64,000 bases of DNA from Candidatus Moraniibacteriota bacterium. GTDB lineage: Bacteria > Patescibacteriota > Minisyncoccia > Moranbacterales > UBA1568. The position numbers were made by a program, and so were the translations under genes. This document shows positions 7,082-27,611 of the stretch, piece by piece. The first letter of the stretch is position 1; every line of letters begins with the position of its first letter. The stretch covers positions 554,167 to 618,166 of the forward strand of contig CP064994.1 in the NCBI GenBank assembly GCA_016699975.1. The letters are read 5' to 3'. The notes beneath the pieces are model-generated. The model was given only the letters and a program-made list of their open reading frames with translations. It made no database searches and was not told the origin of the DNA.

Positions 7082-8797
7082 TCATTTTTCTGCTCGAATC
7101 ACGTAGAGCGCGATAGTATCGGTGTCCATCAGCGTTTCGAGGAGTCGAGACGTTCCGAGTGCAATGAAGGGTTTCCATTCATCGGTCTTCAGAAGAACGA
7201 TGTGGGAAACCCCCCGACGGGAAAGTTCGCGGATCCCTGTCTCTCGAATACTCGGAACCTCACTTTGGAGGAGAAGTGCCGTTTCGTCCCACGGACTTTT
7301 TCCGGTTGAAGAAAGTCGGGGGTTTCCGGTATTTTTCGCTGTGAGGACGGGAGCGGTGAAAAAGGGGTTTGCTGGACTCGCAACAAATGCTTCTTCGGAA
7401 AAATGCAGGGTAAGGTAACTTTTCCACGGGAGAGCGAAGAGTATTGTGGCATTCGGGTCTGAATTTACCAGCTCGTTTGCTCTTGCCCATTCTTTCGGAT
7501 AGGGGGTTCCCCTCAGTTGGCCACTCTCTCCCCACAAAAGAGTTCCTGAAAGAAAAAATGGCGGAAGAAAAAGGAAAATGATCGTGAAGACTTTTGTGAT
7601 CACCATTTTCTTGGGGAGTGAAACACGCGCTTCCTTGATCGCGCTTAAAACAACCAAAATCCCGTGGGGAAGGAAAAAAGCATAGGAAAGCGCAATCAAA
7701 GCGAGCAGTTTCGATGTATCGCGAAGTCCCCGGAAAAGAGGGATGTGGGTGAGACACCATTCGGTGATGGGGCGCGTAATGGGGCTCCCGAATCCGATTG
7801 AGAGAAGAAGTGTTGGAAAAAAGAGGAAGACCAGTGCCAAGGCGAGTGGATCGCGTTTCCGAATGCGGGACAGAGCGCCAACAAAACTGAGGAGGACCAG
7901 AGAAAGAACAAGCGGCGTTCGGAAGGGAAGAAGATCTTCCGTTGTAAAGAAATCGTCATTCCAAAATCCCGAGAGTCCGAGTGCCGAGAGAAAAACATTC
8001 CGATCAGGTCGCTCGATCGGAGCGAATGTTTCAAAATCCGAGTTACCAAATTCCGAAAATGGTTGAGTATCGTCAAAAAAACGGAGGAGCCAAAAACCAT
8101 TTCCCAATAAAAATATCGAGCCAAACGCGATCATTGCGGACGCTATCGCTTTTCGGGAGAGGAGGAGAGGCTCCTTCTCGCGAAGTGTTTTGAAAAGAAG
8201 AGAGAAAGAGGCCGTCAGGAAGAGCAGTGGCGTTGCGATATAGGTCATGTGGAGAGAAACGAGCGGGAAGAGCGTGTAAAAGAAGGCGAAGTGAAGAAAT
8301 CGTTTCTTATCGAATTTTTCAAGGAAGTCGAGAAGGGAGAGGAGGAAGAGTGGCAAAAATCCATAGCCCAAAAGAACAATCCAGTGCCCCGCGAGAAAGC
8401 GCTCCTCGACAAACGGATTCATGAGGAAGAAAAGTCCCGCACCCACGGAAAACAAAACAGGGAAATATCGTCTCGCGAGGAGAAAAAAAGACGCACCCGG
8501 AAGGAAGAGTGCGAACCATAAAAAGAATTTTTGCAGGATGTCGTTCGGGATGAAAGTGCCGAGGGCGCGGTGAACAAAGAAGAGGGGAAGTCCCGAGTCG
8601 ATGCCGCTTCGGAATTTGTCCGCCATGGTCATGCCCGGTCCCCACACCATATCGAGGAGAAAAACATATCCTCGAGTAAAAAAGAACGGAGCCGTGACGA
8701 AGAGTGCCACTGCTGCGAAGAACAGAAGAGGAATGACGGTTTCCCGAGAGCGTTTCCCATCATTCACAAGAGGTCGAGAGTGATCGAAGAGTTTCAT
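7082..8797 (-). CDS. Polytopic membrane protein with a C-terminal extracytoplasmic domain (possible GT-C-type glycosyltransferase or polymerase; family unassigned)
   Basis: 571 aa. At least 12 predicted TM helices across the N-terminal about 420 aa. Soluble C-terminal about 150 aa (...GVSHIVLLKTDEWKPFIALG...). Confidence 0.6.
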   Translation of the reverse strand: MKLFDHSRPLVNDGKRSRETVIPLLFFAAVALFVTAPFFFTRGYVFLLDMVWGPGMTMADKFRSGIDSGLPLFFVHRALGTFIPNDILQKFFLWFALFLPGASFFLLARRYFPVLFSVGAGLFFLMNPFVEERFLAGHWIVLLGYGFLPLFLLSLLDFLEKFDKKRFLHFAFFYTLFPLVSLHMTYIATPLLFLTASFSLLFKTLREKEPLLLSRKAIASAMIAFGSIFLLGNGFWLLRFFDDTQPFSEFGNSDFETFAPIERPDRNVFLSALGLSGFWNDDFFTTEDLLPFRTPLVLSLVLLSFVGALSRIRKRDPLALALVFLFFPTLLLSIGFGSPITRPITEWCLTHIPLFRGLRDTSKLLALIALSYAFFLPHGILVVLSAIKEARVSLPKKMVITKVFTIIFLFLPPFFLSGTLLWGESGQLRGTPYPKEWARANELVNSDPNATILFALPWKSYLTLHFSEEAFVASPANPFFTAPVLTAKNTGNPRLSSTGKSPWDETALLLQSEVPSIRETGIRELSRRGVSHIVLLKTDEWKPFIALGTSRLLETLMDTDTIALYVIRAEK

Positions 8798-8976: not shown

Positions 8977-9471
8977 TCACGCTTCGTGTGGGGACGAGTT
9001 CGAGGATTCGCGAGTATGCGCTCCTTCTTCTTTTGTGTCTCGCACGAAATCGAAGAGTTGTTTGCCGACCCCAATTATCAGAAAAAAGTAAACCCACACC
9101 GCTATCGTCTCTGCCGCATCGCCTGTCCCGATAGTAATGTCGCGATTTTCGAGGAGAGTGAGGAGAGGGATTGCGAGGAGTCCTGCGAGCGCAAAACCGA
9201 TTGAAATACGCGCATCTTTATCGGCGAAAAAAATCCAGGCGGCGAAAACTCCGAGAAGCGTTTCATCGAGACGAAGCTCGGTAAAGAGAGTGAGTGTTGT
9301 AAAGAGAGCAAAAAGAAGAATGGTCCTCGCCCAGGATTTCGGCGAGTTCGGAAAGAGCCTTCGAATGAATGATATGAATCGGTGCATGAAAGTGTGCGAG
9401 AGGGGAGAGAAAGAGGGGAGCGAGAGCTTGGGCTCTTTTGTAGGGTACCGTATTTTTTCGGAACCAGTCAA
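8977..9471 (-). CDS. Putative small 4-TM membrane protein
   Basis: 164-aa ORF with four hydrophobic segments. No family recognised. Weak call. Confidence 0.25.
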   Translation of the reverse strand: MTGSEKIRYPTKEPKLSLPSFSPLSHTFMHRFISFIRRLFPNSPKSWARTILLFALFTTLTLFTELRLDETLLGVFAAWIFFADKDARISIGFALAGLLAIPLLTLLENRDITIGTGDAAETIAVWVYFFLIIGVGKQLFDFVRDTKEEGAHTRESSNSSPHEA

Positions 9472-9567
9472 TTCTCTATGGTATCATACAATAAAACCCT
9501 TTTCTGTCTCGCGATGAGCAAAACGTATTCGCTCCTTTCTTGTTCGCTCCTCCCTCGCTTTTCTCTT

Positions 9568-10245
9568 ATGTATACTCACTTTTCCCAGAAAATTCTTTTC
9601 TTTCTTTTTCCCCTTCTCGCCATCTTGCTTTTCTTTGGGGGATGGCTTTTCTTTCGAGGCCAAAATGAAACAGTTGAAGAAACGAATCAGTCAGATACGA
9701 TTTCAAAAAAAGTGGAAGCGCCGACACCTGATTCATCCCCCTCTTCTTCTCCCGGCTCTCGTCTTTCGGATACAGAAAACGAAGAGAATGGTATGGTGTG
9801 GTATACCATCCCGGAATATGGCATACGATTTTTGGTTGAAAGAGAAGTAGCAGAGAGAATCAATTTTACTCTCAATTCAGAGTCGAAGAAATCCGGCACT
9901 TTCTCCGTAACCGCTTCTCCGGAGAAGTCGAACTCTCCTACGAGTTCGGGTGCCAACATATTTGCTACCCTCCTTGAGGGAACAAAAGAAGATTCGAGAG
10001 TCGACCTTTCATCGTGCGAGGGAAGTGCTTGTTGTCCCGGATACATCGATGATGGGAATGAAACGGAACGTGTTTCAAATGGTGTATTGATTTTCAAAAA
10101 TTCTGAGAAAAGGGTTTGCTATTTCGCAAGCGAGTCTTCGAGAAAGTATAATGAGGCATCTGGCATGACCAAAAAATTCGATCCTGTTACAAAAAAACTT
10201 TTTGCCGGGTATCTGACGAGCGCTCTGGTCGAAGCGATACGGTGA
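9568..10245 (+). CDS. Membrane-anchored protein, paralog A of the 10855 gene (shared N-terminal TM plus GGWLFFRGQNETVEE motif)
   Basis: Start moved to ATG 9568 (MYTHFSQKILFF...) by alignment with paralog B. A 68-nt stretch is about 90% identical to 10912-10979. A later motif WYTIPEYGIRF parallels WSLYEDPEFSFKYP in B. Confidence 0.55.
   Translation: MYTHFSQKILFFLFPLLAILLFFGGWLFFRGQNETVEETNQSDTISKKVEAPTPDSSPSSSPGSRLSDTENEENGMVWYTIPEYGIRFLVEREVAERINFTLNSESKKSGTFSVTASPEKSNSPTSSGANIFATLLEGTKEDSRVDLSSCEGSACCPGYIDDGNETERVSNGVLIFKNSEKRVCYFASESSRKYNEASGMTKKFDPVTKKLFAGYLTSALVEAIR
9631..9698 (+). repeat. Direct repeat copy 1 (about 90% identical to 10912-10979)
   Basis: ttctttgggggatggcttttctttcgaggccaaaatgaaacagttgaagaaacgaatcag versus ttctttggagggtggcttttctttcgaggccaaaatgaaacggttgaagaaatgaatcaa. 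Confidence 0.7.
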
Positions 10246-10370
10246 CACTTTTCATTGCTGGCTCATCTGTAGATACTGCACTCTCCGGAAACAATATGCG
10301 AACTCTTCTGTAGCTGTGTCGAAACGAGGAATATAGATTTGAATTTCGTCTTCCGGTTGACTGAGGAATA
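10246..10370 (+). pseudogene. Remnant of the 3' end of an M23-peptidase gene paralog (homologous to 13796-13925)
   Basis: cacttttcattgctggctcatctgtagatactgcactctccggaaacaatatgcgaactcttctg aligns at about 80% with the 3' end of the 11768-13962 gene (ATLFIAGQSVDTALSGKNTRIL). It is out of frame with the upstream CDS and has a stop after 23 codons. Confidence 0.5.
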
Positions 10371-10662
10371 AAAGAGAATAGTTAACTTTCTTATTGCATG
10401 AGGACAATCAATGATAATTAAGATAAATTAGTCTTCTCACTCGGCGTAAATTTTGTAGGGCAATGAGTGTTTGGTATCCTCTTATGTCCTGCGCTCTTGG
10501 CACAGAAAGGGTTATTTCTTTTCACTCAAAAGTATTCGAAAGGAAAATCTCTCCAATTGAGAAACCAAAAATGGGAAATGGCTTTTCAGTTAGTAAGCCC
10601 GCTAAAATACATATCATATCTCGAAAATGAAAGGGGAAGCGCATAGCTTTCGTATACACTCT

Positions 10663-10697
10663 TGACAAGCAGCTGAAGATGGTTAATAATATTTTTT
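10663..10697 (+). promoter_or_regulatory. Candidate promoter TTGACA-N17-AATAAT in a long AT-rich intergenic region
   Basis: cTTGACAagcagctgaagatggttAATAATat, about 160 nt upstream of the 10855 start. Confidence 0.3.
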
Positions 10698-10854
10698 TCG
10701 AGAATCATGAAAAGTCTGTAGGTGGCTTCCCAATAAAGACTTTTGCATTTTTGAAAGGAGTCTTTTATCCTAAAGAGTACGATTCAGCCCAGCAGACATT
10801 GAGGCATACCGAAAAGCCTTCATAATTATTCTCCCCAAAGTTTCTTTCTCTTCT

Positions 10855-11379
10855 ATGAATATTCTTTCTCAAAAAACATTACTCCTCATTCTTTTTCTTG
10901 CTGCTCTTTCTTTCTTTGGAGGGTGGCTTTTCTTTCGAGGCCAAAATGAAACGGTTGAAGAAATGAATCAATCAGGTATCGAACGATCTTCACCTGTACT
11001 TTCAGAAAATGTTGAAAGGAAAGAAGTGATGTCGGATGAATCAGAAATGATCGACGAAAAGAGGGGAGAAGAGAAGCTCGGAGGTCTCTTTCGGAGAGTG
11101 GATACGATAGGGTGGAGCCTCTATGAAGATCCGGAATTTTCTTTCAAGTATCCTTCTTCGTATAGTATTCGAAAAATCCGTGATGGATTGTTGGTATTCG
11201 GGACAGAGGAAAGAGTTTCAAGTTCCTTTCTTCCTCGAAGTTCCTCAATCGTTGAAAAGGGATTTTCATTATCTATAGAAAGAACCCTCCTCGGAGATGA
11301 CGGTTCCGGAAAATCTGATGTCCTCCTATTGAGAGAGTGGTCTGGGGGATCGCGGAGCATTGGGAGATTCTGTGTTTGA
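10855..11379 (+). CDS. Membrane-anchored protein, paralog B (N-terminal TM plus GGWLFFRGQNETVEE motif)
   Basis: 174 aa: MNILSQKTLLLILFLAALSFFGGWLFFRGQNETVEEMNQS.... Same module order as A, and followed by the M23 peptidase gene. Confidence 0.55.
   Translation: MNILSQKTLLLILFLAALSFFGGWLFFRGQNETVEEMNQSGIERSSPVLSENVERKEVMSDESEMIDEKRGEEKLGGLFRRVDTIGWSLYEDPEFSFKYPSSYSIRKIRDGLLVFGTEERVSSSFLPRSSSIVEKGFSLSIERTLLGDDGSGKSDVLLLREWSGGSRSIGRFCV
10912..10979 (+). repeat. Direct repeat copy 2 (partner of 9631-9698)
   Basis: See copy 1. Confidence 0.7.
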
Positions 11380-11767
11380 AGAAGGAACGTACCACGGAAC
11401 GCCATCATATTTTCTCGCCAAGAGGGCAAGGGGACAATTTTTTCCGCTCCACACAGACAAGAAACATACTCTTTCTTTGACAAAAGAACCCGCTCTTTTT
11501 TTGAAATATCACTTCTGGCGACAGCCAGAGAATTCAATTCGTTTGAATATATACTGAGGGGGGTTGTCAGTACTCTGGAGTGGAAAAAATAGAATAAAAG
11601 AAGAAAATACTCTTGCCTCTCTTTCTGTTTCCTCTCACTTTTTTGAAGGGTAACTTTTCCTTTTATGCATGATTTTGTGCTGAAAGAATGAAGAGCTACC
11701 CAAAAGGAAGTGAGTTTGTGGGTATCACACTAGTTCGTTGACAACTTAACGCTGGGAGTTTGTAGTG

Positions 11768-13962
11768 ATGAAGATTAACAAATCTTTGTTTGTGTTAATA
11801 CTTTCACTTCTAATGATTGGTAAAATTTCTGCATCTGAAGTAAATGGTCAGGCTCGAGAAATTCTCAATAATCTCTTTCCCTAGAACCCGGAAGAACCCC
11901 TTTTGTAGTAAGTTGTGCTTCGGGATGTGGTCTCCATCTTGGAGAAGATCTCTATGCTCTTGATTTTACTGTTAGTGGAGAATGCCAATCGCCTTCCGGA
12001 GAGCATCCAGCTTTCGGAAAGGAAATTCGTTCTACTCAGAAGGGAGAAGTTATTAAGTCCTATAGCGGAGATAGGAGTGGATATGGGAAATACGTCGAAG
12101 TGCGGCATGCTGTTGTATCCATACGTGATAAACCAGGGGTAGAATTTCAGCTAGTGAGTAAGTATGCCCATGCTGAATCTTTGCAAGTCTCTATTGGTGA
12201 TCACATAAGATCTGGACAGGTTATTGGCCTTATGGGAAATACAGGCAACTTTTCTTCGTCGAGCCCCTGTAACCATCCCGGGACGCATCTTCATTTTGTT
12301 CTTTATTGGGATCGTTATGAGAAAGGAGTATTTAAGGAGAGGGTTGGCGAGAAACCTGTTGTCCTTTTTCCATATAATTATAATGATCTTAATAGGGGTT
12401 CATCAAAATTCTATTCAGAGACTTATGATATTGGAAAATCGGAAGAAATTGCCATGATGCAAAACTGCGATGAGATGTATCCAATATGTCGAGATGACAA
12501 TGGAGATGGAATTGTTGATGGAAGTGGAGGTTCTTCTTCGGACACGGACAAGGGTGGAGGAGGTGCAGAGGATGACTCAAATACTGCTCCTGTTTCATCT
12601 CACAATGCCGATATTACTGTCGAAGACCGAGCGTTTCGTCTCAATCCCGATGGAACTAATAACGGCTCTTCTCTGAAAGCAAACTGTCGTACATGTTTGG
12701 AAGAGGTTCTCACAGTTGGTGAAACCATCAAATATGAAGGCGTTGCTTCTGTTGCAAATGCGAACGTGAGCGATTCTCTCCGACCAGAAAAAAAGGACTC
12801 AAAAAAGATAGAATTCGGATTCTTTTTCTCGGTGAAAAACCAGGATGGTACTACCTACAAAGATTGGTGGCGAGGAGCTGAAATCGGGGTTGATATTGAT
12901 CGGCTCAGAAAAGGAAAGAGTCCTGAATTTTCTTTTCTCTACGAAACTCCCAATCTTCCCGGGAAAAAACTGGAGATGTGGATATGTGCCGATACTGATG
13001 ATGAAGTCTTGGAACCCGAAGAAGGTGATAAACGGAATCCTGTAAGGACTTCCAGGGATTGCAGGGGAAATAATCGATCCAAGATGAAAACCTTTACGAG
13101 CAAGGCAAGGGATTTCGACTATGTTCTCGAAAATGCCGGTATGATCAACGAGCAGAGAGGATATCTCTGGCTGGGCGAATCATACCGTCTTTGGTATGAG
13201 GTACATGCTTCCGGCGCAGATATTCCCATCGAACCCGTTTCAATCCTGATTTCTCGAACGGGTCCAGAAGAGGGAAAGAAATCAAACCTTCTCCTTGCGA
13301 GTCGGACGCTGACACGAGCAGAACTTACTACTGGATCTGTTTTCTTGGATCAACTCAGCGAGGTGTTTTCAGCACCTATGATTCCTGGGACATACTGGTT
13401 TCATGTTTGCGTGCACTCGGGGAAGATGCCTGAATCCAATTCTGAAAACAACTGTCGTCGCTTCCGAAAGGAAGTGCGCGATCCGGATGTCTCCATTACA
13501 CACAGTATGATTCGTTGTCCTGTGTTCACTCCTGTTACTTGGGGACCGCCCTGGAGTTCGAATCCCCAGTATGCACCGCCCTTTGATGAAAAAGGAGCTC
13601 TTGTTATTACTCCTTGGTGTCTCGAGTCTTCCCCAGACTATCTGGAGGTGTTTTTCCGAGGTTCGCAAATACTCTGGGTACACAAAGATGTGTACATTTT
13701 GAACATTGGTACGAATACACTTGTTCGATTCACGGCGGATACCTGCACGGTACCGAGGGAAGGTGGGAGTAAAGAATGGTGTCCCGGAACTGCGACACTT
13801 TTCATTGCTGGCCAATCTGTGGATACTGCACTGTCTGGAAAGAACACGCGCATTCTTGCGTGGATGTGTCGGAAGCCGACCGAGCCGAATGGAACGTGGA
13901 CGTGCGGGTGGCGACTTCAGGAAGCCAGCATACGGGCGCGACAAGGAGAAATGGTGCCTTAA
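11768..13962 (+). CDS. Secreted M23 (LytM-type) metallopeptidase with about 450-aa Cys/Trp-rich C-terminal extension; frame broken near 11872-11884 (apparent 1-nt deletion)
   Basis: Frame 2 encodes signal peptide MKINKSLFVLILSLLMIGKISASEV... and ends at TAG 11882. Frame 1 opens after the stop at 11869-11871 and encodes the M23 domain (CGLHLGEDLYALDF = HxxxD; KSYSGDRSGYGKYVEVRH; GLMGNTGNFSSSSPCNHPGTHLHFVLY) with no in-frame start before Met 12100. Adding one C to the CCC run joins the two frames. Confidence 0.65.
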
Positions 13963-14015
13963 AGAAAGGATGAAAAAATAACGACTGGAAAATGACTGAA
14001 TTCATGGTATTTATT

Positions 14016-14047
14016 CCTCCTGCGGGTGACCGTGGGGAGGTTTTTTT
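14016..14047 (+). terminator. Putative intrinsic terminator (CCTCC-N15-GGAGG then T7)
   Basis: cctcctgcgggtgaccgtggggaggttttttt, located 54 nt downstream of the M23 gene stop. Confidence 0.4.
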
Positions 14048-14126
14048 GTATCTCGTATGAGGGAGGAGAGAAGGCGAAAGAGAAGAAGGCGGACAGAAAG
14101 GTGGGAAAGCTATTCCACGAAGAGAA

Positions 14127-14543
14127 TTATTTCCCCAAGAAAAGGAGAAGTGCTGTTTTGTGAATCATCTCGCGATGGTTTTTCCCTCGGTCTCTCTCCA
14201 AAAAAACCGCGAGCTCGTCAAGTGCGACATCACAAGAGCGCATATGGAGCGCGTTCATTTGCGAAAGAATAGAGAAAACAAGGCACGCCGTCCGCTTGTT
14301 GCCATCGGTGAACGGATGATCCTTGATGAGAAAATAGAGATAAGCAAGTGTTTTCTCGGCCGAGGAAGCGTAGAGCTCATGCCCGAAGTAGCAGCTGTTG
14401 ATGCTCTCGACGATCGCCTCGACCCGTTTCTCTATCCGCGGGACGAGAGGAAAGGACACAAGTCCTTCTTTACGAAGCGTCTCGTATACCTGACAGACGT
14501 TTTTCGAGGTGAGCGGTCGAAATGTTTTTCTTTCCTGCGTCAT
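14127..14543 (-). CDS. doc: Doc-family toxin (Fic/Doc fold, type II TA toxin)
   Basis: Motif HPFTDGNKRTA matches the Doc signature HxFx(D/N)(A/G)NKR (P1 Doc: HIFNDANKRTA). About 138 aa from Met MTQERK. An alternative start at 14582 is possible. Confidence 0.7.
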   Translation of the reverse strand: MTQERKTFRPLTSKNVCQVYETLRKEGLVSFPLVPRIEKRVEAIVESINSCYFGHELYASSAEKTLAYLYFLIKDHPFTDGNKRTACLVFSILSQMNALHMRSCDVALDELAVFLERDRGKNHREMIHKTALLLFLGK

Positions 14544-14721
14544 AGTCGCGAAGGGATTCGAGTATGGATTTCTTTTCGGCAAACTGGCGTTCCAAAACCG
14601 AGCGAAACTCGCGATCCGCCTTTTTCATTTCTTCGGAAGAACTTCCAGAAAAAAGTTGTAGGAAATATTTCAGCATATATTCGTTTCTTCGCCGTTTAGT
14701 ATACGGGAAAATGTTCAACAT
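14470..14721 (-). CDS. Candidate cognate antitoxin (unrecognised family), upstream of and overlapping doc
   Basis: 83-aa ORF immediately upstream of doc on the same strand (MLKYF...SSEEMKKADREFRSVLERQFAEKKSILESLRDYD...). Charged and helical-looking, but no Phd/YefM signature. The 74-nt overlap with doc is unusually long, so start or extent is uncertain. Confidence 0.25.
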   Translation of the reverse strand: MLNIFPYTKRRRNEYMLKYFLQLFSGSSSEEMKKADREFRSVLERQFAEKKSILESLRDYDAGKKNISTAHLEKRLSGIRDAS

Positions 14722-14800
14722 GAAAACGTCTCGCGGCGAGGTCGAGGGAAATCGTTAAGCAGAAGGTGGAAAATAAAAGCGGAAAAAAATGGGGAGCGAA

Positions 14801-17800
14801 TCATGAGGAAATTTTTCCCGTTTTGTTTTGGCGCCGGCGCCAAAAAGCATCGAAGAAGAGAAAGAAGATACAACCACCGAACGTGAGCCCACTGATCAGG
14901 AGCCCTACAGAGAACCATCGCTGCGGGAAGAATTCGATTCTCATCTCGATATCATACGAACCGTCCTCGTTTTTTCGGCACGCAACGCTTTCCTCTTGGC
15001 AGAGTATTTCCGGCTCTACAAACCAGCCGTTTAAGAATCCGTTTAATTTGAAGTGCTTTTCTTCGTCAATTTGACGCGGATGAACCCACGGGATCCAATT
15101 TTTGAGCCAACCGTTTACTGCTTCGTCGTTCAAAAACGCTTTCCATTCGGGATGGAAACTTTCGCTCATCGCGAGATAAAACGGCGTCGTCGCTCCCTGC
15201 ATATGAACGAGCTTCTTTGTCGGGTTCACCAAATCAAAAGCAATCTCGCGCGGCTCTCTGAAGTTTGTTTCTGGATCCGACACGAGGTAGTATCGGTCGA
15301 GAATATCGGGAAGCTCTACGAGAGAAAAGTTGTCGTAACGCGTGACGACATTTGTCTTTTCGTCTCTCGAGTACGAATAGAGCGTGAGAGTAGCTGATGT
15401 TGCTCCCTCGGGAACGGAAATCACTTTCGTGAATGTTTGCCAGGGAGACTCTGCCTCCACACCCTCTTTCTCGAGAGAAATCTTTTCGCTTACCGAAGAT
15501 TTCTTGGAGTCATTGAAAGCGATATGAAACCCTGCTTGCCTTCCGTTCGGACTTTGATAATCAAACGAGAAAAGCGCCGAGGTTTTTTCGCGAACGGGAA
15601 TATCTTTTTGGTTTGTGCAGGCGATGTGGCGTGTGGCAGCGAGCTCAAGAAATCGGTTTCCTTCTGAGGCTCTATTCTCGCCCAACGTCATCTCAAGGAC
15701 GGGGTTATCGTCCGTCGCATTGCAATCCCCGACTTTCTCTTTCCACAAACCTTCTTCGAACGAGGGGTTCTTGATTCGATTTGAAAAATCATGTTCGGGA
15801 TCTTCGTATTTCACCGAAATTTGTCCCGCGGCTCTATCGAGGGGAATCCGAACAAAGGAATCTGTGCGCTCCGATGGTGAGAGAAGTAACGTTGAGTCAT
15901 TGCTCTGGACTGCCGACTCCGGAGCTCGAGCATACAGAGAAAGACTTCCTGAAGAATTGTTAATACTTTCTTCAATATCATTGGTGTGAAATCCGATATT
16001 TTTTGGTGATATTTCTTCAAATAAAGGGTAAACTTTTCTTGAAGGGAAGACTCCTTCTGGAGTCAAAGAAAATTCAGGCTGGTTTTCAAAAGAAGCGCTC
16101 AAAAACTTATACTTTGAAAGACTATTTACTTCCAATTGATAGGAAAAAATTTCTTTAAATGTTCGAATTTCTTCTTTGGACTCTCTGTTAATAAAGTTAG
16201 TAGAGTATTTCAGTTCTTCTTTCGAATCAGAATATTTTGAATCAAGGAATGAATATGTTGATTGATAATCTATTTTTGGTGAAAAGAGACCAAATTTTTC
16301 TTCGGATTGGTAAAACTCTTGTTTCTTAAGATACACTCGGTCAATTGATGAAATGCTTAATAAGTCGAAAAAGAGGGGATCTTGTTGATTGAAAAGGGAT
16401 TGAAGAGTGTCTTGAAAAAGTTTGGTTTCTTTATACGAACCTCCCAAACGAAAGGTATTTATGCTGTAGCTGGAATTTTCATAATTTAATTCGTCCTGAT
16501 GATAGGAAGGAATTACGAGCGATCTTCCTGGACGCTGGTTGGCGTTCTCAATAATTTCGTTTATAACAATGCTTTCCTTATATTTTTCGGGAGAGCTTTT
16601 TTGAAAAAGTGAAATATCTCTTCCAAAAAGAGGCCATGCATAGATACAGTTGGCGATGAGAAATGCGGAAACAAGAATGAAAAAATTTTTGGCTGATACA
16701 AGACTTTTAATTAAGGATAATACTATTGCAAGCAACAGAATTGAAAAAATAAGCAAGATGATTTGTACCTTCGCTGGGTTCCTTATTGTATTTGTAAACC
16801 AGCCCATTTCAAAAGCCTTGGTACCAAATTCTTGATTCACAGTAAGAATATGGAGAAATCCAATAATGAGTATTATGACAATGAGAATCCCATAAAACTC
16901 TGTATTAAGATTCTTGGTTTTTGATTCTTTAAAGTTCTTCGTATTCGTATCTTTTTCTTTTTGAAGGAGTAGAAGTATAAGACAGAGAAGGAATATAAAA
17001 GAATAACCAAAGATGTTTTTTGTTGATATTTGATTATATCCAAGAGTTACTTGTCCATTCCCATTATTTCCAGCAAACCGAAGAGTGTTTATAAGCGAAG
17101 TGGACTTGTAGTTGTGAAGATAATCTTGAATCGACGAAGATCCGGGAAGTGATTCCTTTCCGGAAGATGACACTAAGAAAAGCGGGAGGAATAAAAACGA
17201 AAGAAGAACAATTGAAAGAATAGAAAACACCGAGAGTCTTACTGTGTATTTTAATGATAGTCCCAGTATTACCTTTATTCCCACAAATAAAATAAGTGAA
17301 AGAAAGAGAATAAAGATAACCGGAGGAAGAAATGTTACGGTTAAGAATAAAGTCAGTACCCAAAGAACAGTATTTTTTAGGGAAAATTCTTCCTTATAGA
17401 ATATTTTTATTGAGAAATAAAGAAGAAAAAGAAGTGAAGAATAAACCCAAATTGTTTGACCATTTCTAAAGTCACCAAATATTATTGGGTTTGCTATGGA
17501 AAAAAATCCTGAAACAAATGATATGAGGGAGCTTTTATAAAGTTTATAAGTTACATAGTAAGCGGAGTACATCAGAAGAAACAGTGGAAAGATTCGTAAA
17601 AGAAGAAATTCTCCATGATCATCAAGAAAGGGGATTTTTGTTATTCCAAGTGGGATGATATTTGTCAAAGAAGTTCTTATCGAAGTTCCAAAATTCGCAT
17701 AACTCCAGAGGTAGATAGTCTTATCGGTAAGGATTTGGCGTGAGAGCTGATCGGTATGGGCATAGTCTCCCCAGGCAAGTGGTTCTCCCCTTAAGTCTAT

Positions 17801-17968
17801 AAAAAAAACCGAAGTGGTAAAAAGAAATACGAGAAATAATAATACAACAGGCATGAACCCCTTCACTTTTAGGGGTATGTCATTAAAATATTTTTTTATT
17901 TTTTGCGCGTTCTTCTCCATGAAATTTTGAGCTTTTTCAATGCAGTGCAATGCGTGTAAATCTATCAA
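14801..17968 (-). CDS. Giant (1055 aa) polytopic membrane protein: N-terminal about 14-TM domain, large extracytoplasmic beta-rich domain, C-terminal TM anchor (GT-C / AftD-like architecture, tentative)
   Basis: One long ORF. N-terminal half is highly hydrophobic. C-terminal about 450 aa is soluble (…FLNGWFVEPEI…), followed by final TM FSVGLLISGLTFGGCIFFLFF and RRRQNK. GC content shifts from about 48% (C-terminal domain coding) to about 30-38% (TM domain coding). Confidence 0.65.
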   Translation of the reverse strand: MIDLHALHCIEKAQNFMEKNAQKIKKYFNDIPLKVKGFMPVVLLFLVFLFTTSVFFIDLRGEPLAWGDYAHTDQLSRQILTDKTIYLWSYANFGTSIRTSLTNIIPLGITKIPFLDDHGEFLLLRIFPLFLLMYSAYYVTYKLYKSSLISFVSGFFSIANPIIFGDFRNGQTIWVYSSLLFLLYFSIKIFYKEEFSLKNTVLWVLTLFLTVTFLPPVIFILFLSLILFVGIKVILGLSLKYTVRLSVFSILSIVLLSFLFLPLFLVSSSGKESLPGSSSIQDYLHNYKSTSLINTLRFAGNNGNGQVTLGYNQISTKNIFGYSFIFLLCLILLLLQKEKDTNTKNFKESKTKNLNTEFYGILIVIILIIGFLHILTVNQEFGTKAFEMGWFTNTIRNPAKVQIILLIFSILLLAIVLSLIKSLVSAKNFFILVSAFLIANCIYAWPLFGRDISLFQKSSPEKYKESIVINEIIENANQRPGRSLVIPSYHQDELNYENSSYSINTFRLGGSYKETKLFQDTLQSLFNQQDPLFFDLLSISSIDRVYLKKQEFYQSEEKFGLFSPKIDYQSTYSFLDSKYSDSKEELKYSTNFINRESKEEIRTFKEIFSYQLEVNSLSKYKFLSASFENQPEFSLTPEGVFPSRKVYPLFEEISPKNIGFHTNDIEESINNSSGSLSLYARAPESAVQSNDSTLLLSPSERTDSFVRIPLDRAAGQISVKYEDPEHDFSNRIKNPSFEEGLWKEKVGDCNATDDNPVLEMTLGENRASEGNRFLELAATRHIACTNQKDIPVREKTSALFSFDYQSPNGRQAGFHIAFNDSKKSSVSEKISLEKEGVEAESPWQTFTKVISVPEGATSATLTLYSYSRDEKTNVVTRYDNFSLVELPDILDRYYLVSDPETNFREPREIAFDLVNPTKKLVHMQGATTPFYLAMSESFHPEWKAFLNDEAVNGWLKNWIPWVHPRQIDEEKHFKLNGFLNGWFVEPEILCQEESVACRKNEDGSYDIEMRIEFFPQRWFSVGLLISGLTFGGCIFFLFFDAFWRRRQNKTGKISS

Positions 17969-18995
17969 AGATTTTCAAGTATTTTTGTCTCTGACATTTC
18001 ATGTATTGCAATTGATTGTTTGCTGATATTTCTATGAAACTCCGATACTTTATTATCGTAGCTGATTGGGAGAAATGGAATTCCTGCGAAGTGAGCAGAT
18101 ATTTGAACGTGGTACTGCGGGGCTATAACGTATAGATTCGAGGCATGTTTTTTGAGTGCCAGAATAAACGCAATTGGGTTATATTCGAAATCCGATGCTG
18201 TGATATTCCCATGCTCCTGTTCCAGAGCCTTCATTTTTGAGTAGAGTTTTGGAGCGATAGTTTTGGATTCGAAGACGACAAGAGAAAATTTCTTTGAAGT
18301 ATTTTTCCGAACGAAATTGAAAAGAGTGTTGGTATAGGTCCAAAATTTCTTGTTGGTGAAGCGGCGAAATCCTACGAGTGTTATTGGTTCATGGAAACCG
18401 AGATTCTTCGATATTTCTTCCGCTTCTTTTTCGTAGGCATCGGTCGAAACTTCATCGAGCGAGAAACTAATATCTCGGTCGAGCAGCGTGTTTGCCTTAT
18501 TAAACTTCGAGAAATTCTCAAAAGTTTCCGGGTCTCGCGCCAAAATAAGTTTTGCTGATTTTGCCGCGAGGTAGGCCGATATTCTGCCTAAGAAAGAAGT
18601 GGATGTGTAATATCCTATTCCCAAAAGGTAGACGTTTTTCCTGGAGAGCTTTGAGAAAAGAAATAAAAGCGCGCTCAATACGAATATATTTTTATTGAAA
18701 TCGAGTCCCCATATCCCTCCTCCTCCTATGATGATATTTTTGAACCGAAAAACCCTTTGAGGATACCGACTTTTTCTGAAGAGTTGATGATTGAATAGCT
18801 AAAGTCGTGATGATATGTTCCGAAAATCTTTGGATTCGAGTAGTAAATTTTTACATTCTTTACTCCGTGTTTCGAGAACAGAAGTTGCAGTATTTCCAAA
18901 AGGAGTTCATCGCCATAATTTGTTCCTCCATAATAGCCTATGAGGAACGTATTTTCGAGATTTCTCGAAGAAAAGAATTTTGAAAGATGATTCAT
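17965..18995 (-). CDS. Polysaccharide pyruvyl transferase family protein (CsaB/WcaK-like), split into two ORFs (18995-18726 and 18678-17965) by an apparent 1-nt deletion
   Basis: N-terminal piece carries IGYYGGTNYGDELLLEIL, the PF04230 signature GYYGxxNxGDE. C-terminal piece has ...ILARDPETFE... and ...ITLVGFRRF..., consistent with the central and C-terminal motifs. Frames differ by one position. AT-rich (about 30% GC). Confidence 0.55.
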
Positions 18996-19005
18996 GGATA
19001 TTGTC

Positions 19006-19926
19006 TTACCGCCATTTACTCGTGATATATCCTACTCCTCCAAAGCCGAATTCGCAGGTTTTCATGAAAAGCATACCAACACCGACGAGAGGATTCTTGA
19101 AGAGTTTTTTCGGTTGAGCGAAAAAGAGTCGGTAGCGAGAAAGTATACCTGTCTGATGGTCCACGTTGTCGGTTTTGCCCCGGTTCTTTTCGGTGTATTT
19201 CGCGAACTTCTGTGCGTAATAGAACTTTTTCTTCACAGTTTTCCAAAGATTGATTCGCCCTTCATTGTGATAAATAAAGTCATTGATTCTCCCGATTTTT
19301 CCATGCTGTTCAATTCTTTGGGAAAGATCCCAGTCTTCGCCCGATACCATGGATTCGTCGTATCCGCCCACCTTCTCGAAGATATCGCGACGAAAGAATC
19401 GAGCCGCTTCCATCCAGGGAATGCCGACGTAAAAACTTTTTTCGAGTTTTTTGCATTTGGCCCAGAATCCTTCCCCATAGGATTCTTCCGGAACGATAAC
19501 ACCAACGCTCTCCGGATGTGACTCCAGAACGGAGACGCAGGAAGCGAGAATGTTCGGGGCGAGTTTCATGTCGGAGTCAATAATGAAAACGAAGGTTCCG
19601 TGCGATTTCGAAACGCCGAAATTTCTTTGGGTGCAGCGCTCCGGTCCTTTTTGAAAAACCTGGTCGGCGTATTGAAGGGCGATGTCGCGAGTTTTGTCGG
19701 TAGAGAAATTATCGACAACGATGAGCTCGATTTTCCCGGTGAAAATCTGCGATCTCACTGAGGAGAGGCAGGCTTCGAGAAATGGCTCGGAATTTTTGGT
19801 GGGGACAATGACAGAGACGAGCGGGGAGTCTGTCGAAACGCTGGTCTTCTCGTCTTTGGGAGTGAAGGGCGCAGTAGGGGAGGAAGGCGCTTTTTTGGTG
19901 GGATCGAGGTGAGGAAGTGGCGTCAT
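19006..19926 (-). CDS. Glycosyltransferase family 2
   Basis: VSVIVPTKNSEPFLEACLSSV, DSD, GEDWDL: GT2 (GT-A) motifs. Confidence 0.85.
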   Translation of the reverse strand: MTPLPHLDPTKKAPSSPTAPFTPKDEKTSVSTDSPLVSVIVPTKNSEPFLEACLSSVRSQIFTGKIELIVVDNFSTDKTRDIALQYADQVFQKGPERCTQRNFGVSKSHGTFVFIIDSDMKLAPNILASCVSVLESHPESVGVIVPEESYGEGFWAKCKKLEKSFYVGIPWMEAARFFRRDIFEKVGGYDESMVSGEDWDLSQRIEQHGKIGRINDFIYHNEGRINLWKTVKKKFYYAQKFAKYTEKNRGKTDNVDHQTGILSRYRLFFAQPKKLFKNPLVGVGMLFMKTCEFGFGGVGYITSKWR

Positions 19927-20083
19927 AGGAAAAAGGTAAATTCAAAAAAAGAGGCACTCGCATTCTTTCTCCCTGAACAACAGGAATATCGAGGAGTGAG
20001 CTTTGGATACTGGTGTCAAAAGAGAGGAGACGAAAAACTGTGACGAAATGAGCTTTCGGATTTCTGGGATTCTTATCGAATTC

Positions 20084-21187
20084 TTATCGTTTGAGGCGAA
20101 GGAGAAGCGATTCAAATACGTCTGCCGTATGATCGAAGGTAAAAGAGCGGCTGTGTTCGAGTGCGTTTTTTTGGAGCGTTGTGTAGCGATCTTTGTCTTC
20201 GAGCAGGGAGACGAGCTCTTTTGCGAGCGCCTCGGGGCTCGTATCGGTCAAGATTCCGGTTTCCCCGTCTTTCACGGCTTCGGTAAATCCATCGACCCGG
20301 TAGACGACCGAGGGTGTTCCCGAAGCGGCGGCTTCGATCACGACGAGGCCGAACCCTTCTTTTACAGAAGCGCTTGAGAGGATATGCGCGCACCGCAAAA
20401 GCTCTGCCTTTTTTTCTTCCGAGACAAAACCGAAAAATGTGATGTCGGCGTCGTCTTTATTCTCTTGCTCGAGCTTTTTCTTGTATTCGTCTCCGCCTCC
20501 TACGATCCAGAGGGCGAGGTTCGGAATCGTTTTTTTGGCGAGCGCATAGGCGGCGATGAGGTCACTCACCCCTTTCATCTTGGCGACTCGACCCACAAAG
20601 ATAATGGTAGGGCGTGTTTCCTTTTGGGCGTCTTCACTGCGGGCGATCGGCGTCAAGGTAATCGCTTCGGGGATAATGGCGATGTGGCGCGGAGAAATAC
20701 CAACCGATTCGAGATCGCGCTTGGTCGCTTCTGAGACGGTGAGAAATGGTGTTTTGCGGTAGGGAAGGAAGAAAAACTTTTCCAGCGTGTAGCCGATTCT
20801 TCCGATCGGAAAGGGAAACATCCGGAGCCATATTTCGCGCGCCACTTCGTGAATGAAGGCGACTTTCCGTACGCCTCGAGCGTAGAGTGGCGTCATAAAG
20901 GGGATGCCGTGAATCTGATCGACCACGATATCAAAGCGCTCTTTTCGAAGTTTCGTCCACCACAGAAGAAAAACCCACAAATGAACACCGAGCTTTTCAC
21001 CGCCTCTCCGAATGATGCGGTACCCGTCTCTCATTTCTTCGCGCTGTGCGCCTGGGAAGAAGGTGGTGACCAGGGTGAGGCGGTGCCCACGTAAGACGAG
21101 GCGCTTTGCCACTTCTTCTGTGACGACTTCCGCTCCGCCGGAGCGAGGGTTTTTGAGATCACGCCAATTGAGAAAGAGGAGATTCAT
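20084..21187 (-). CDS. Glycosyltransferase family 4
   Basis: GT4 N-domain plus EX7E motif VKEGFGLVVIEAAASGTPSVVYRVDG. Overlaps the upstream GT2 gene by 4 nt (21184-21187), suggesting translational coupling. Confidence 0.85.
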   Translation of the reverse strand: MNLLFLNWRDLKNPRSGGAEVVTEEVAKRLVLRGHRLTLVTTFFPGAQREEMRDGYRIIRRGGEKLGVHLWVFLLWWTKLRKERFDIVVDQIHGIPFMTPLYARGVRKVAFIHEVAREIWLRMFPFPIGRIGYTLEKFFFLPYRKTPFLTVSEATKRDLESVGISPRHIAIIPEAITLTPIARSEDAQKETRPTIIFVGRVAKMKGVSDLIAAYALAKKTIPNLALWIVGGGDEYKKKLEQENKDDADITFFGFVSEEKKAELLRCAHILSSASVKEGFGLVVIEAAASGTPSVVYRVDGFTEAVKDGETGILTDTSPEALAKELVSLLEDKDRYTTLQKNALEHSRSFTFDHTADVFESLLLRLKR

Positions 21188-22119
21188 CGCTTTTTTCGAA
21201 TGATGTAGAGCGGCCGGTTTTGCGTTTCAGTATGGATGTGCGCGATGTAGAAGGCGAGGAGCCCGAGAGAGACGAGCACGACTCCGACCAGAAAGAGAAT
21301 CAGGTTTGCAAGAATCGCGGGGCCCGAGAAGGAGAGTCCCCATACAAAAAGATAGCGGTCGAGCAGCATGACGATACCGAGAATGCTCGAGAGGATGATA
21401 ATCGTAATGCCGATATAGCCCGCGAGACGAAGAGGGAAAAGACTGTGTGCGACCAGGCTTTCGAGTGCGAGGGAGACAAGCTTTTTCATGTCGTAGGAAG
21501 CGGTGCCGTGGAGCCGATTGGGAGCGGTAAAGGGAATAAAGGCGCGGCGAAAACCAAGCCAATCGATAAGGCCACGCGTCATGCGGCTCCGCTCGGTGAG
21601 GGCGTTGAATTCGTCGGCGACACCGCGGTCAATAAGTCGAAAGTCGGTGGCACGCGGCACGATATCCGTTTGCGAGACGGCTCGGATCAGTTTGTAGAAG
21701 AGGCGCGAGCCCATGCGTTTGAGGCGCGTATCGCTCGCGTCGTTTTTGCGTACGCCGATCACCACTTCCGCGCCGTTTCGCCACTTCTCTATGAATTTCG
21801 GAATGAGTTCGGGTGGATGCTGCAAGTCAGCATCCATGGAGAGGATGAGATCGCCTGTTGCGGCGCGGATTCCCGCGGTGGTCGCCGCTTCTTTCCCGAA
21901 ATTTCGGGAAAAATCAAGAACGCGCACTGTTTCCGGATGGGCGTTTTCGAGATGCGTGAGTTGAGTGAGGGAGTCATCGCGACTTCCGTCATTCACGAAG
22001 ATTATTTCAAACGAGAGATCGGGACACGTCTTTGTGAGGACGTCGGAGACTCTTTCGAACAAGACGGGAACATTCTTCGCTTCGTTGTAGACGGGAACGA
22101 CGATGGAAATTCGAGACAT
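21184..22119 (-). CDS. Polyprenyl-phosphate glycosyltransferase, GT2 (DPM1/GtrB/ArnC-like) with C-terminal TM helices
   Basis: MSRISIVVPVYNEAKNV...FVNDGSRDDS...MDADLQHPPE plus 2 C-terminal TM helices. Start placed at Met 22119 (the longer ORF extends to 22257). Confidence 0.85.
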   Translation of the reverse strand: MSRISIVVPVYNEAKNVPVLFERVSDVLTKTCPDLSFEIIFVNDGSRDDSLTQLTHLENAHPETVRVLDFSRNFGKEAATTAGIRAATGDLILSMDADLQHPPELIPKFIEKWRNGAEVVIGVRKNDASDTRLKRMGSRLFYKLIRAVSQTDIVPRATDFRLIDRGVADEFNALTERSRMTRGLIDWLGFRRAFIPFTAPNRLHGTASYDMKKLVSLALESLVAHSLFPLRLAGYIGITIIILSSILGIVMLLDRYLFVWGLSFSGPAILANLILFLVGVVLVSLGLLAFYIAHIHTETQNRPLYIIRKKR

Positions 22120-22253
22120 CAAGAAATCAGTCAGATGGATTAGAGGGCAGCCGTTTCTCTTTCGAGCGGATTGGAGTTTGGAAAAACTCAATACCCGACG
22201 ATTCAGTGTACCGAATTTTTGTCCGAGGGGCAAATATTTTCTTGAAAAAAATG

Positions 22254-23612
22254 TCAATGATTTTTGATATTTCTGTATTTTTCAAAGACGAACACGAGTA
22301 AAAATGAAACAAAGAGAACAACGTTTGCAATGAGTTCGGCCCGAACGATCGAATGAATCGTGGGGTGAGTGGTGAAGAAGCTCGCGATGAAAGCGACGGT
22401 CACAAAGGTGTAAGGAACGAGAAACAGTCGAGAGAGTTTTGCAAGAAAATGGTAGAGAAAAACTGTTGAGAGCGATCCGAAAAACATAGCGAGACCGAAT
22501 TCTGGAAGAAAGGGCGCCGCCAAGAGGTAGCGTGTTCCAAAGAGAATGGTTACGACCGGCACGGAGAAAAATAAAAAGAGGAGGAGGCAGACGGCGCCTG
22601 TTCCGCCCACAATCATGAAGGCGAGCGCGAGGAGTCGGTCAGCTTTCTTTCGTGCGCGTTTGGGCGCGTCCGCACGTTCCGCGGGTGCATCTTCGGGGAG
22701 GGTGGCGGCGGTCATGGGGAGGAGCACGGTGACGATGGCACTCCCGCCATAGGTGATGATCCGTCCCATAACGGCGACGGCACTCAAAATTCCCGCATCC
22801 CCCGCCTCGAGAACGCGTTTTCCGAGAACCACATCAATATTGCCGAAGAGGGCAAGGAGAAGGGTTGCACCAAAGGCGACAGGAAAGTACGGCGGAACAT
22901 TTCGGAAGGTGTTTCGGAGGGCGGCGACTTTCGAAAGGGGCTCCTGGGGATCTTTCGAGCGAAAAGAGAGGAATGATGATGAGGGGAAAAATTTCCGGAG
23001 AGCGGGAACTGAGAGGAGATAACGATGGGCAAGGAGAGTGCTTCCGACGAGCGCCATACTGACTCCCCCTGCTCCGAAACCGATCAGCACAAGCGCGACA
23101 CTCCCGAAAAGTTTCGTGACGGTGGTGATGATGCTTGAAAGTGAGAGTGCGCGAAAGTTTTGGAGTCCCTGCGCGACACTCATCGAAATGGAGATCGCGA
23201 TCGAGGCGGGAACAACGAGTGACAAAAGGAGGAGTGGCGTCGTATGAATTTCAAAGAAACGAGCGGCAAGCGGAGCGAGTGCGGCGAGGAAGGCGGTTGA
23301 CGCGATGCCGAGCGCGAATGAAACGCGACGAGTGAGCCGAACGAGCGATCGTATTTCTTCGTGCTTCCCGGCATTTTGAAGGACGGCGATTCGTTGCGTG
23401 AGGAGGATGCGAAGCGCGGCAAGCGGTGCGGTGAGGAGCATGGAGAGCGTGACGAGGAGCGCCACTTCGCCGTATTCCTCGGGAGAAAGGAGGCGCCCCA
23501 GGACGAGATTGAAGGCGTAGTTCAAAACATTCGTGGTCATGCTCCCTATGAGCACGATCGCACTTCCAGAGAGAAACGGATTCTCTCGAAAAAAAGTGAG
23601 CAGTCGTTTCAT
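22254..23612 (-). CDS. Oligosaccharide flippase (Wzx/MOP superfamily, polysaccharide biosynthesis protein)
   Basis: About 12-14 TM helices. N-terminus ...VLIGSMTTNVLNYAFNLVLGRLLSPEEYGEVAL... is typical of PF01943. Start taken at MKRLLTF (23612). Confidence 0.75.
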   Translation of the reverse strand: MKRLLTFFRENPFLSGSAIVLIGSMTTNVLNYAFNLVLGRLLSPEEYGEVALLVTLSMLLTAPLAALRILLTQRIAVLQNAGKHEEIRSLVRLTRRVSFALGIASTAFLAALAPLAARFFEIHTTPLLLLSLVVPASIAISISMSVAQGLQNFRALSLSSIITTVTKLFGSVALVLIGFGAGGVSMALVGSTLLAHRYLLSVPALRKFFPSSSFLSFRSKDPQEPLSKVAALRNTFRNVPPYFPVAFGATLLLALFGNIDVVLGKRVLEAGDAGILSAVAVMGRIITYGGSAIVTVLLPMTAATLPEDAPAERADAPKRARKKADRLLALAFMIVGGTGAVCLLLFLFFSVPVVTILFGTRYLLAAPFLPEFGLAMFFGSLSTVFLYHFLAKLSRLFLVPYTFVTVAFIASFFTTHPTIHSIVRAELIANVVLFVSFLLVFVFEKYRNIKNH

Positions 23613-27582: not shown

Positions 27583-27611
27583 AAATTTTTTGTGAGGATT
27601 GTCTCAATCGT

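Follow-up and report, generated by a model that had tools for sequence, protein, structure and literature searches.

Genes and debris at the locus

We analyzed a 64-kb window (the whole stretch of DNA to which all positions below refer; 47.7% G+C) of a metagenome-assembled genome (MAG) of a Candidatus Moraniibacteriota bacterium, centering on a locus at which two genes for small membrane-anchored proteins, here called partners A and B, are followed by a gene for a secreted M23 peptidoglycan hydrolase (Table 1). Pfam scans place the locus in a polysaccharide and cell-envelope region with glycosyltransferases, a flippase, a DUF4012 protein, and a Fic protein. The original prediction took A and the short sequence behind it for a decayed duplicate of the B–M23 pair; our analysis points instead to a site at which whole partner–hydrolase cassettes are replaced through a short shared 5′ segment. 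Comparisons rest on contigs from related organisms, among them two from sister strains: L001 (4.7 kb, Logan assembly of SRR12767646) and L027 (808 bp, European Nucleotide Archive ERZ27239125).

Table 1. Features of the cassette locus, with positions in the 64-kb window
Feature	Position	Strand	Remarks
Gene A, intact "orphan" partner, 225 amino acids (aa)	9568..10245	+	Complete open reading frame (ORF)
Conserved 5′ block, copy 1, encoding FFGGWLFFRGQNETVEETNQS	9630..9697	+	Exact core 9643–9671
Hydrolase remnant, C-terminal non-catalytic domain, in-frame stop	10239..10324	+	80% identity to 13789–13874, 86 nt
Second debris piece, probably start of a PsbP-like partner ectodomain, reads EEYRFEFRLPVD	10325..10360	+	30/36 nt match to L001 752–787
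Promoter-like site upstream of B, TTGACA-17 nt-AATAAT	10662..10690	+	11/12 consensus positions; consensus match only
Gene B, B-type partner	10855..11592	+	Assembled ORF ends at 11379; ancestral frame to 11592
Conserved 5′ block, copy 2	10911..10978	+	Exact core 10924–10952
Gene for predicted secreted M23 peptidoglycan hydrolase	11768..13962	+	Signal peptide 11768–11884; body 11884–13962 in other frame
Hydrolase C-terminal Cys-containing domain, last ~160 aa	13471..13959	+	Includes 13789–13874, counterpart of the remnant
Terminator-like hairpin and T run 3′ of the hydrolase gene	14018..14047	+	

The near-identical 68-nt segment first noted in A and B is borne out: its two copies agree at 62 of 68 positions (91%), and the 29-nt exact core occurs at just these two sites in the 64 kb, where shuffled sequences predict none. 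Gapped alignment carries the similarity back to both start codons at lower identity, and nucleotide likeness between the genes is confined to the first ~130 nt of each.

In both partners, one N-terminal helix that ends in GGW is joined through a low-complexity linker to a folded ectodomain. In A, a single membrane helix (residues 10–30 of an AlphaFold 2 model) precedes an alpha/beta ectodomain of the A-type family (residues 76–225), with predicted local distance difference test scores of 78–94 in most 10-residue blocks, and Mog1/PsbP matches recur in structure searches with this model. The same start codon is called for A in L001, and because A ends where the A-type family ends, with the same architecture, it is full length. 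B as assembled is a 174-aa ORF, the NCBI entry "MAG: hypothetical protein IPL87_02880" (P0001). Its ectodomain is orthologous by BLASTP to those of a 231-aa protein on contig L002 (E 6e-29) and a 243-aa protein on contig L003 (E 9e-19), each encoded directly upstream of an orthologue of the window M23 gene.

The ectodomains of A and B share no similarity detectable by BLASTP. Since L002 and L003 hold pairs orthologous to B and M23, the split between A and B predates those lineages, and as judged from their sequences the two are not recent duplicates. Aligning the proteins, a check that the original prediction had proposed, thus brought out a similarity of the N-termini (24/32 identical) that does not extend to the ectodomains, so that the supposed divergence of A's ectodomain from B's is not borne out; nor is the reading of A and its remnant as a decayed duplicate, as A belongs to a family of its own and B and M23 are orthologous elsewhere.

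No Pfam family is matched by A, and B gives just a sub-threshold DUF2627 match on its helix. The PsbP_2 profile (PF18933), representing a Mog1/PsbP fold, is carried by several related partners (P0009, P0012, and P0014–16), whereas neither A nor B reaches its cut-off or any other Pfam threshold. In an hhalign comparison, the A family matched PsbP_2-bearing partners with a probability of 2%, and beyond the helix the result was negative; in P0020, an A-type domain and a PsbP-like one occur as a fusion. A literature search for PF18933 found no paper, and we know of no described function for it. Sequence searches of the PDB returned no match for the A family, the hydrolase C-terminal domain, or the whole M23 protein.

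The 122 nt 3′ of A are debris from at least two further genes. Their first part scores 87 in local alignment to the M23 gene, compared with 20.7 ± 2.2 for shuffles (52 versus 10.2 ± 1.5 with another scoring); the original prediction had staked itself on this similarity exceeding chance, and it lies ~30 standard deviations above the shuffles. In frame it reads TLFIAGSSVDTALSGNNMRTLL, then a stop codon and LCRN, and the counterpart in the M23 protein is TLFIAGQSVDTALSGKNTRILAWMCRK (tblastn E 1.9e-7). Past 10324 there is no significant likeness to the M23 gene (tail score 9; shuffles 9.4 ± 1.7). Since 88 nt still separate the end of the match from the M23 stop codon, the extreme 3′ end of the gene is not included. 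The remnant first described as ~125 nt long and ~80% identical to the M23 3′ end is therefore real and of that identity, but shorter and differently placed. The next 36 nt, fused in frame to the hydrolase remnant, are probably a fragment of a PsbP-like partner gene: their counterpart is codons 97–109 of the L001 partner gene (P0002 residues EKYGFEFQLPAEYD), with a score of 24 that none of 200 shuffles reached (16.0 ± 2.0) and a tblastn E of 0.02. Because this piece matches another gene, the supposed single remnant resolves into two abutting fragments of two genes.

By its domain content, the gene after B encodes an M23 metallopeptidase with a Sec-type signal peptide, followed by an M23 head, probable immunoglobulin (Ig)-like repeats, and a C-terminal domain. 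The head matches PF01551 at 54.6 bits (cut-off 28.7, E 1.2e-14, residues 45–143), and the HxxxD and HxH residues (H18, D22, H135, and H137; HLGED..., THLHF) are invariant in the orthologues P0004 and P0005; identity over the head is 59% to the L002 orthologue and 41% to that of L003. P0004 and P0005 combine M23 with CARDB repeats (PF07705), which are also matched in the CHAP-domain enzymes of L029 and L039. The window protein has no CARDB match at E ≤ 0.01, and its middle part aligns with CARDB-bearing relatives. P0004 and P0005 end in CARDB repeats and are without the Cys-containing C-terminal domain.

That domain has no Pfam match. The C-terminal part of the window enzyme is homologous to the C-terminal 220 aa of the L029 CHAP hydrolase (E 7.5e-19) and to the C-terminus of the L001 M23 enzyme (E 1.7e-9), which is of another subtype (like a 398-aa M23 protein of L003) with the same body and tail; the GQSVDT motif inside the remnant also stands in the L029 and L001 tails. 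On these homologies the hydrolases are mosaics of head, body, and tail, and the remnant beside A derives from a tail. As the tail domain is common to M23- and CHAP-headed enzymes, the gene lost beside A need not have been an M23 gene; the original account of a mostly deleted first M23 copy keeps its core, the loss of a large hydrolase gene after A, and loses the identity it gave to that gene. Association at no fewer than seven loci makes a CHAP-headed neighbor more likely than an M23-headed one. The window M23 gene may itself be recombinant, its tail acquired from the type otherwise found with A-type/CHAP cassettes.

Both genes of the B cassette are frameshifted in the assembly. B leaves its frame at a G5 run (11344–11348) and returns at an AA run (11398–11399), ~55 nt being out of frame, and the 231-aa L002 protein aligns by tblastn across 10912–11586; a long out-of-frame segment ending near a T7 run at ~11505 was ruled out by tblastn and the orthologue alignment. 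In the hydrolase gene, signal peptide and body change frame at a CCC run (11879–11881), where one added C would join them as ...NNLFPLEPGR..., the orthologue having ...NNFYLPLEPGG.... Compared with their orthologues in L002 and L003, a glycosyltransferase family 4 (GT4) gene (26411–27576) is broken by a frame change at an A6 run (~26606), and an LPG-synthase-TM gene (27642–28579) by one at a T5C3 run (~27896). Homopolymer frameshifts in several window genes suggest residual indel errors from long-read assembly. Because these conserved genes are likewise affected, we do not count the frameshifts in B and M23 as a sign of pseudogenization; they are probably assembly or sequencing errors. The original contrast of a decayed upstream with an intact downstream copy needs qualifying: in the assembly it is B and M23 that are frameshifted, even if probably through error, and A is a complete ORF.

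Overlapping same-strand ORF pairs at 17965–19006, 34398–36076, 41655–43042, and 46713–49333 may be further frameshifted genes; they include a PMT_2 pair (370 + 208 aa), a Wzy_C-containing pair (225 + 279 aa), and four overlapping minus-strand ORFs. A pyruvyl-transferase ORF among the suspect genes is without the first 85 profile positions. Over the 2.1 kb of flank shared with L001, the window shows two indels only, both in homopolymer length: CC versus CCC at 14018, inside the terminator stem, and A7 versus A6 at 14783.

Sister strains and the shared 5′ block

L001 is nearly identical to the window on either side of the locus (99.3% over 9107–9697 and 98.6% over 14011–15532). Between these flanks it holds one different cassette rather than two, with a 254-aa partner and a 617-aa M23 enzyme. 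The partner gene has the first 130 nt of A, then a linker like that of B (84% nucleotide identity), and then a PsbP-like ectodomain found in neither A nor B. The L001 M23 gene has no nucleotide similarity to that of the window. L003, by comparison, carries two intact cassettes in tandem with a 5′ segment of 115 nt common to both; the arrangement in related genomes, which the original prediction had proposed to check, thus varies in both number and kind of cassette.

In L027, the ectodomain (P0010) is 98% identical to that of A at the protein level, with three synonymous and three non-synonymous nucleotide differences, and the first 51 nt after the A stop codon (10246–10296) are identical to the window. 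Over the A ectodomain and this junction, identity to the window is 99–100%. The junction between A and the remnant is real and common to strains. The helix-coding 5′ end of the L027 gene is unlike A's and resembles B's.

These mosaics break at opposite ends of the same segment, L001 at the 3′ edge of the block (9697) and L027 at its 5′ edge (~9641), which marks the 68-nt block as the recombination joint. Third codon positions within the block are almost invariant in four alleles, whereas the adjacent helix codons differ freely in the codon table. Over the N-terminal ~36 residues, A is closer to B (24/32 identical) than B is to its own orthologues (16/35 and 10/31). The two L003 partners (214 and 243 aa) likewise share their N-termini (22/30), and P0011–P0013 carry an L003-type N-terminus on differing ectodomains. 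Ectodomains follow orthology and 5′ ends follow the genome, the pattern left by concerted evolution, or by exchange of cassettes through their 5′ segment. Recombination or gene conversion is thus a supported explanation for the A/B block similarity; the gene conversion originally suspected behind the 68-nt core finds its backing in the conserved synonymous sites and in breakpoints at the block edges. An exact 26-nt scan of Joint Genome Institute (JGI) metagenomes for the block core found no match.

A Fic/DOC family gene (14127–14582, minus strand) lies directly downstream of the cassette and is kept in L001 with a few substitutions. Two multi-pass membrane proteins without a Pfam match, of 571 aa (7082–8797, minus strand) and 1055 aa (14801–17968, minus strand), flank the locus. 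Look-ups by identical protein sequence for A, B, the Fic protein, and the 571-aa protein gave no match in an index that does not cover the source genome.

Cassettes, orphans and fragments in related contigs

An exhaustive search of 1.84 billion representatives found 19 relatives of the A-type family, in about ten clusters. The A-type gene is followed directly by a gene for a 676–684-aa CHAP-domain hydrolase in L029 and L030/31/32, by a CHAP gene in L033, L039, L040, and L042, and by a CHAP fragment in L038. Partner type tracks hydrolase type: B-type partners stand with M23 type 2 (three loci), PsbP-like partners with M23 type 1 (two loci), and A-type partners with CHAP enzymes (at least seven loci).

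Three further Patescibacteria contigs independently show orphan partners beside pieces of a hydrolase gene. L038 (5998–8182) has two A-type genes, 86–90% identical in repeat segments over the first ~390 nt and then divergent, with a truncated and frameshifted 5′ piece of a CHAP gene between them. In L042 (1–2395), an A-type gene comes first, then 108 nt that copy (at 95%) the intergenic region and the first 23 CHAP codons, then a second A-type gene, and last a full CHAP gene. In L035 (53–1326), an A-type gene is followed by a CHAP signal-peptide stub and an unrelated membrane-protein gene.

A second strain-level comparison comes from L029 and L030, of another Patescibacteria lineage, which hold the same locus after rplY with flanks ~93% identical. 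They differ wholesale at two places only, in the ectodomain of the partner and over the final ~150 aa of the CHAP hydrolase (L029 3705–4082 and 5777–6248; L030 8207–9119 and 10790–11254), and the L030 partner is the A-type/PsbP-like fusion P0020.

When species-representative genomes were scanned with the M23 alignment, the M23 domains found were all distant (L005–L026, 28–40% identity), and the small partners had no clear relative there, only two weak matches; the source genome lies outside the representatives scanned. L004 (P0006) is a relative of the repeat body that has neither an M23 head nor a partner. On L002 (1–979), a second M23 protein gene (727 aa) lies ~7 kb upstream of the cassette, before hrcA-grpE-hsp20-dnaK. 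A block of glycosyltransferase family 2 (GT2), UDP-glucose dehydrogenase, GT4, LPG-synthase-TM, and PMT_2 genes lies directly downstream of the M23 cassette in L002 (10179–16798) and L003 (6259–13809). In the window this block (23734–30588) is ~10 kb from the cassette, the interval (14127–23669) containing the Fic gene, the 1055-aa membrane protein, and minus-strand polysaccharide genes.

Proposed cassette exchange, its alternatives and its meaning

We propose that the locus is a strain-variable chromosomal cassette site of Moranbacteria (Patescibacteria, or candidate phyla radiation, CPR). The first gene of a cassette would encode a small partner, held in the membrane by one N-terminal helix with its alpha/beta domain facing outward, and the second, ~100–150 nt downstream, a Sec-secreted peptidoglycan hydrolase of 620–730 aa in which an exchangeable M23 or CHAP head is joined to Ig-like CARDB repeats and, in certain variants, to a Cys-containing C-terminal domain. 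Orphan A, debris of 86 and 36 nt, and a promoter-like site with the complete cassette of B and M23 all lie in the window, and A and B would share their first ~130 nt because cassettes recombine through that segment, by gene conversion or cassette replacement. Given the anatomy of the locus, the orthology of its pairs, the breakpoints of the mosaics, and the orphans and fragments met again in other contigs, we regard it as likely that cassettes have been swapped by recombination, leaving orphan A and the debris behind.

Function is a separate matter. The partner would bind its own hydrolase and most likely serve as membrane-anchored self-protection (immunity), or else as a dock or regulator; the hydrolases would act on foreign cell walls, of hosts or competitors, which would drive the strain-level turnover. 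Co-variation, strain turnover, head swapping, and orphan retention are together best matched by effector–immunity logic. That the partner is an immunity protein for its cognate hydrolase nevertheless remains a tentative proposal to which we give somewhat less than even weight, and the explanation as a whole, evolutionary and immunity parts blended, seems to us moderately probable.

A recent tandem duplication of B and M23, with most of the first M23 copy deleted, A's ectodomain diverging fast, and the 68-nt core preserved by conversion or constraint, would account for two direct repeats in the expected order and orientation and for a remnant closest (80% at the nucleotide level) to the resident M23 C-terminal domain. 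Likeness is restricted, however, to the first ~130 nt of A and B and the 86-nt remnant, not the whole unit; the ectodomains are without detectable similarity and A matches its own family in length and end point; B–M23 pairs are orthologous in L002 and L003, while A-type pairs elsewhere involve CHAP, not M23; and the remnant domain is common to both kinds of hydrolase, all of which makes such a history improbable and largely refutes it. Only slightly better placed, and still quite unlikely, is preservation of the 5′ block purely by purifying selection on the membrane-anchor and juxtamembrane peptide GGWLFFRGQNETVEE, with no recombination. That peptide is identical in A and B, three of the six nucleotide differences in the block are synonymous, and GGW at the helix end is conserved at the protein level across genera. 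Selection on the peptide fits poorly with nine third-codon positions identical between A and B within the 29-nt exact core, with the helix-coding part just upstream aligning only with numerous mismatches and several gaps, with the lineage-specific LFFRGQNE part (each lineage has its own shared N-terminus), and with the L001 and L027 breakpoints that flank the block. Mis-assembly across the repeated block could be imagined as a source of the tandem arrangement or the mosaics, given the indel errors of the MAG, an exact 29-nt repeat, and short sister contigs. Yet L027, assembled independently from a different sample, has exactly the same bases at the junction of A's stop codon and the remnant; the remnant itself, with 20% divergence and an in-frame stop, does not look like a collapsed or duplicated repeat; and analogous orphan-plus-fragment layouts occur in unrelated contigs, so we consider an artifact very improbable.

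The two remaining alternatives concern function. Least probable of all is a prophage-type lysis cassette of holin-like membrane protein and endolysin, which is suggested by a small single-pass membrane protein beside a peptidoglycan hydrolase and by generic matches of the M23 domain to phage endolysin families. Against it stand hydrolases of 620–730 aa with Sec signal peptides and Ig-like repeats, partners with folded ectodomains of 150–200 aa and no PHROG match, chromosomal neighbors (glycosyltransferases, ribosomal protein L25, and arginyl-tRNA synthetase), and viral contigs that yielded no A-type relative and a weak M23 match on one only. A housekeeping role has a more substantial claim, although we still think it unlikely: the hydrolase would be an autolysin for growth and division of the cell's own wall and the partner its activator, dock, or spatial regulator. 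This would be loosely like LytM-domain factors with their membrane partners; autolysins are often M23 or CHAP enzymes, envelope and polysaccharide genes surround the cassette with no delivery system seen, and the L029/L030 partner co-varies with the hydrolase tail rather than the head. On the other side, strains with flanks ~1% apart have had the entire cassette replaced, catalytic heads (M23 type 1, M23 type 2, and CHAP) are swapped on a common body, and orphan partners are kept after hydrolase loss in four lineages; such replacement, head swapping, and orphan retention are unusual for essential housekeeping genes.

Several points weigh against cassette exchange with immunity as we propose it. 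The sister strains are known from three short contigs only, and L001 and L027 could in principle be mis-joined within the shared block. Should the frameshifts of B and M23 prove genuine, the one complete cassette of this strain would be dead. Interaction between partner and hydrolase is deduced from adjacency, family-to-family association, and co-variation in one strain pair only, and in that pair (L029/L030) the partner changes with the non-catalytic tail and not the catalytic head, so that a dock or receptor fits at least as well as an active-site inhibitor. Pfam scans covering part of the window's large ORFs found no delivery system: no type VI or type VII secretion system (T6SS, T7SS), contact-dependent inhibition (CDI), or Rhs machinery.

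Among known systems, CDI loci (cdiA-CT/cdiI) and Rhs orphan arrays offer a close parallel. Their cassettes differ completely between strains within near-identical flanks, a short conserved sequence at the border of constant and variable regions serves as crossover point, and truncated effector fragments and intact orphan partner genes lie beside the active cassette. The window locus resembles them in its strain-swapped cassettes, border joint, fragments, and orphan partners, and its behavior also recalls the wall-targeting effector–immunity pairs of T6SS and T7SS. It differs in its joint, which sits at the 5′ end of the small partner gene rather than in the effector, in its gene order, with the partner before the enzyme, and in its enzyme, a Sec-secreted peptidoglycan hydrolase beside which no machinery of CDI, Rhs, T6SS, or T7SS was seen. 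What the locus has in common with polymorphic cassettes is an adjacent, co-oriented pair, a partner that tracks the hydrolase, replacement between conserved flanks, and orphans with fragments. By analogy it would at most work like a polymorphic effector–immunity system; with no linked delivery machinery, the joint in the partner gene, and families undescribed in Pfam, we do not file it as a member.

In the M23 bacteriocins lysostaphin and zoocin A, a secreted M23 endopeptidase carries a non-catalytic domain at its C-terminus, and a resistance gene lies next to its own. Immunity there comes from cytoplasmic FemABX-like enzymes, which modify the cross-bridge, and the targeting domain is SH3b. 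The window cassette is alike in pairing a secreted M23 enzyme bearing a C-terminal non-catalytic domain with an adjacent small gene; membrane-anchored binding proteins and cassette shuffling, in contrast, are no part of the bacteriocin systems. Mycoplasma vsp/vlp families provide a precedent for the joint, with a homogenized 5′ leader or anchor on highly divergent bodies and recombination through the shared segment. There the outcome is phase or antigenic variation within one genome, whereas at the window locus it is strains that differ, and every variable gene has a hydrolase gene linked to it. M23 enzymes have been reviewed (PMC9662197).

For the CPR predator Vampirococcus, secreted peptidoglycan hydrolases have been proposed to degrade the host wall, with the DD-endopeptidases of Bdellovibrio and their self-protection protein Bd3460 cited as precedent (PMC8080830). 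That precedent resembles the window in that a predator or epibiont wall hydrolase is co-encoded with a would-be protector; it differs in that Bd3460 is an ankyrin-repeat protein for which a strain-variable cassette array is not described. Our literature search found no description of such cassettes or of hydrolase–immunity pairs in Patescibacteria; in the Patescibacteria papers searched, secreted hydrolases are mentioned only in passing, and the genetic studies checked are silent on them.

For the questions of how ultrasmall Patescibacteria get through or remodel the walls of the bacteria on which they live, and of what sets the host range of a strain, the locus provides a concrete candidate. 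It represents a candidate family of secreted wall hydrolases in which heads, tails, and membrane-anchored partners are shuffled between strains otherwise ~99% identical, and in which orphan partners persist, just as immunity genes do in polymorphic-toxin systems. A broader claim, which we offer as a doubtful one, is that Patescibacteria carry an undescribed class of polymorphic, Sec-secreted hydrolase effectors with PsbP/Mog1-like immunity proteins, exchanged at a 5′ joint, with orphan immunity genes kept. If that were true, M23 and CHAP heads would be interchangeable on an Ig-repeat body with a variable C-terminal targeting domain, and the locus would set which hosts or competitors an epibiont strain attacks or resists. 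Three sequence families that Pfam does not model emerge from the analysis, namely the A-type and B-type partners and the C-terminal domain of the hydrolases, along with a short stretch of nucleotides that acts as a recombination joint. Should the immunity reading prove mistaken, the pairing of partner and hydrolase still gives a useful handle on the envelope biology of an uncultured phylum.

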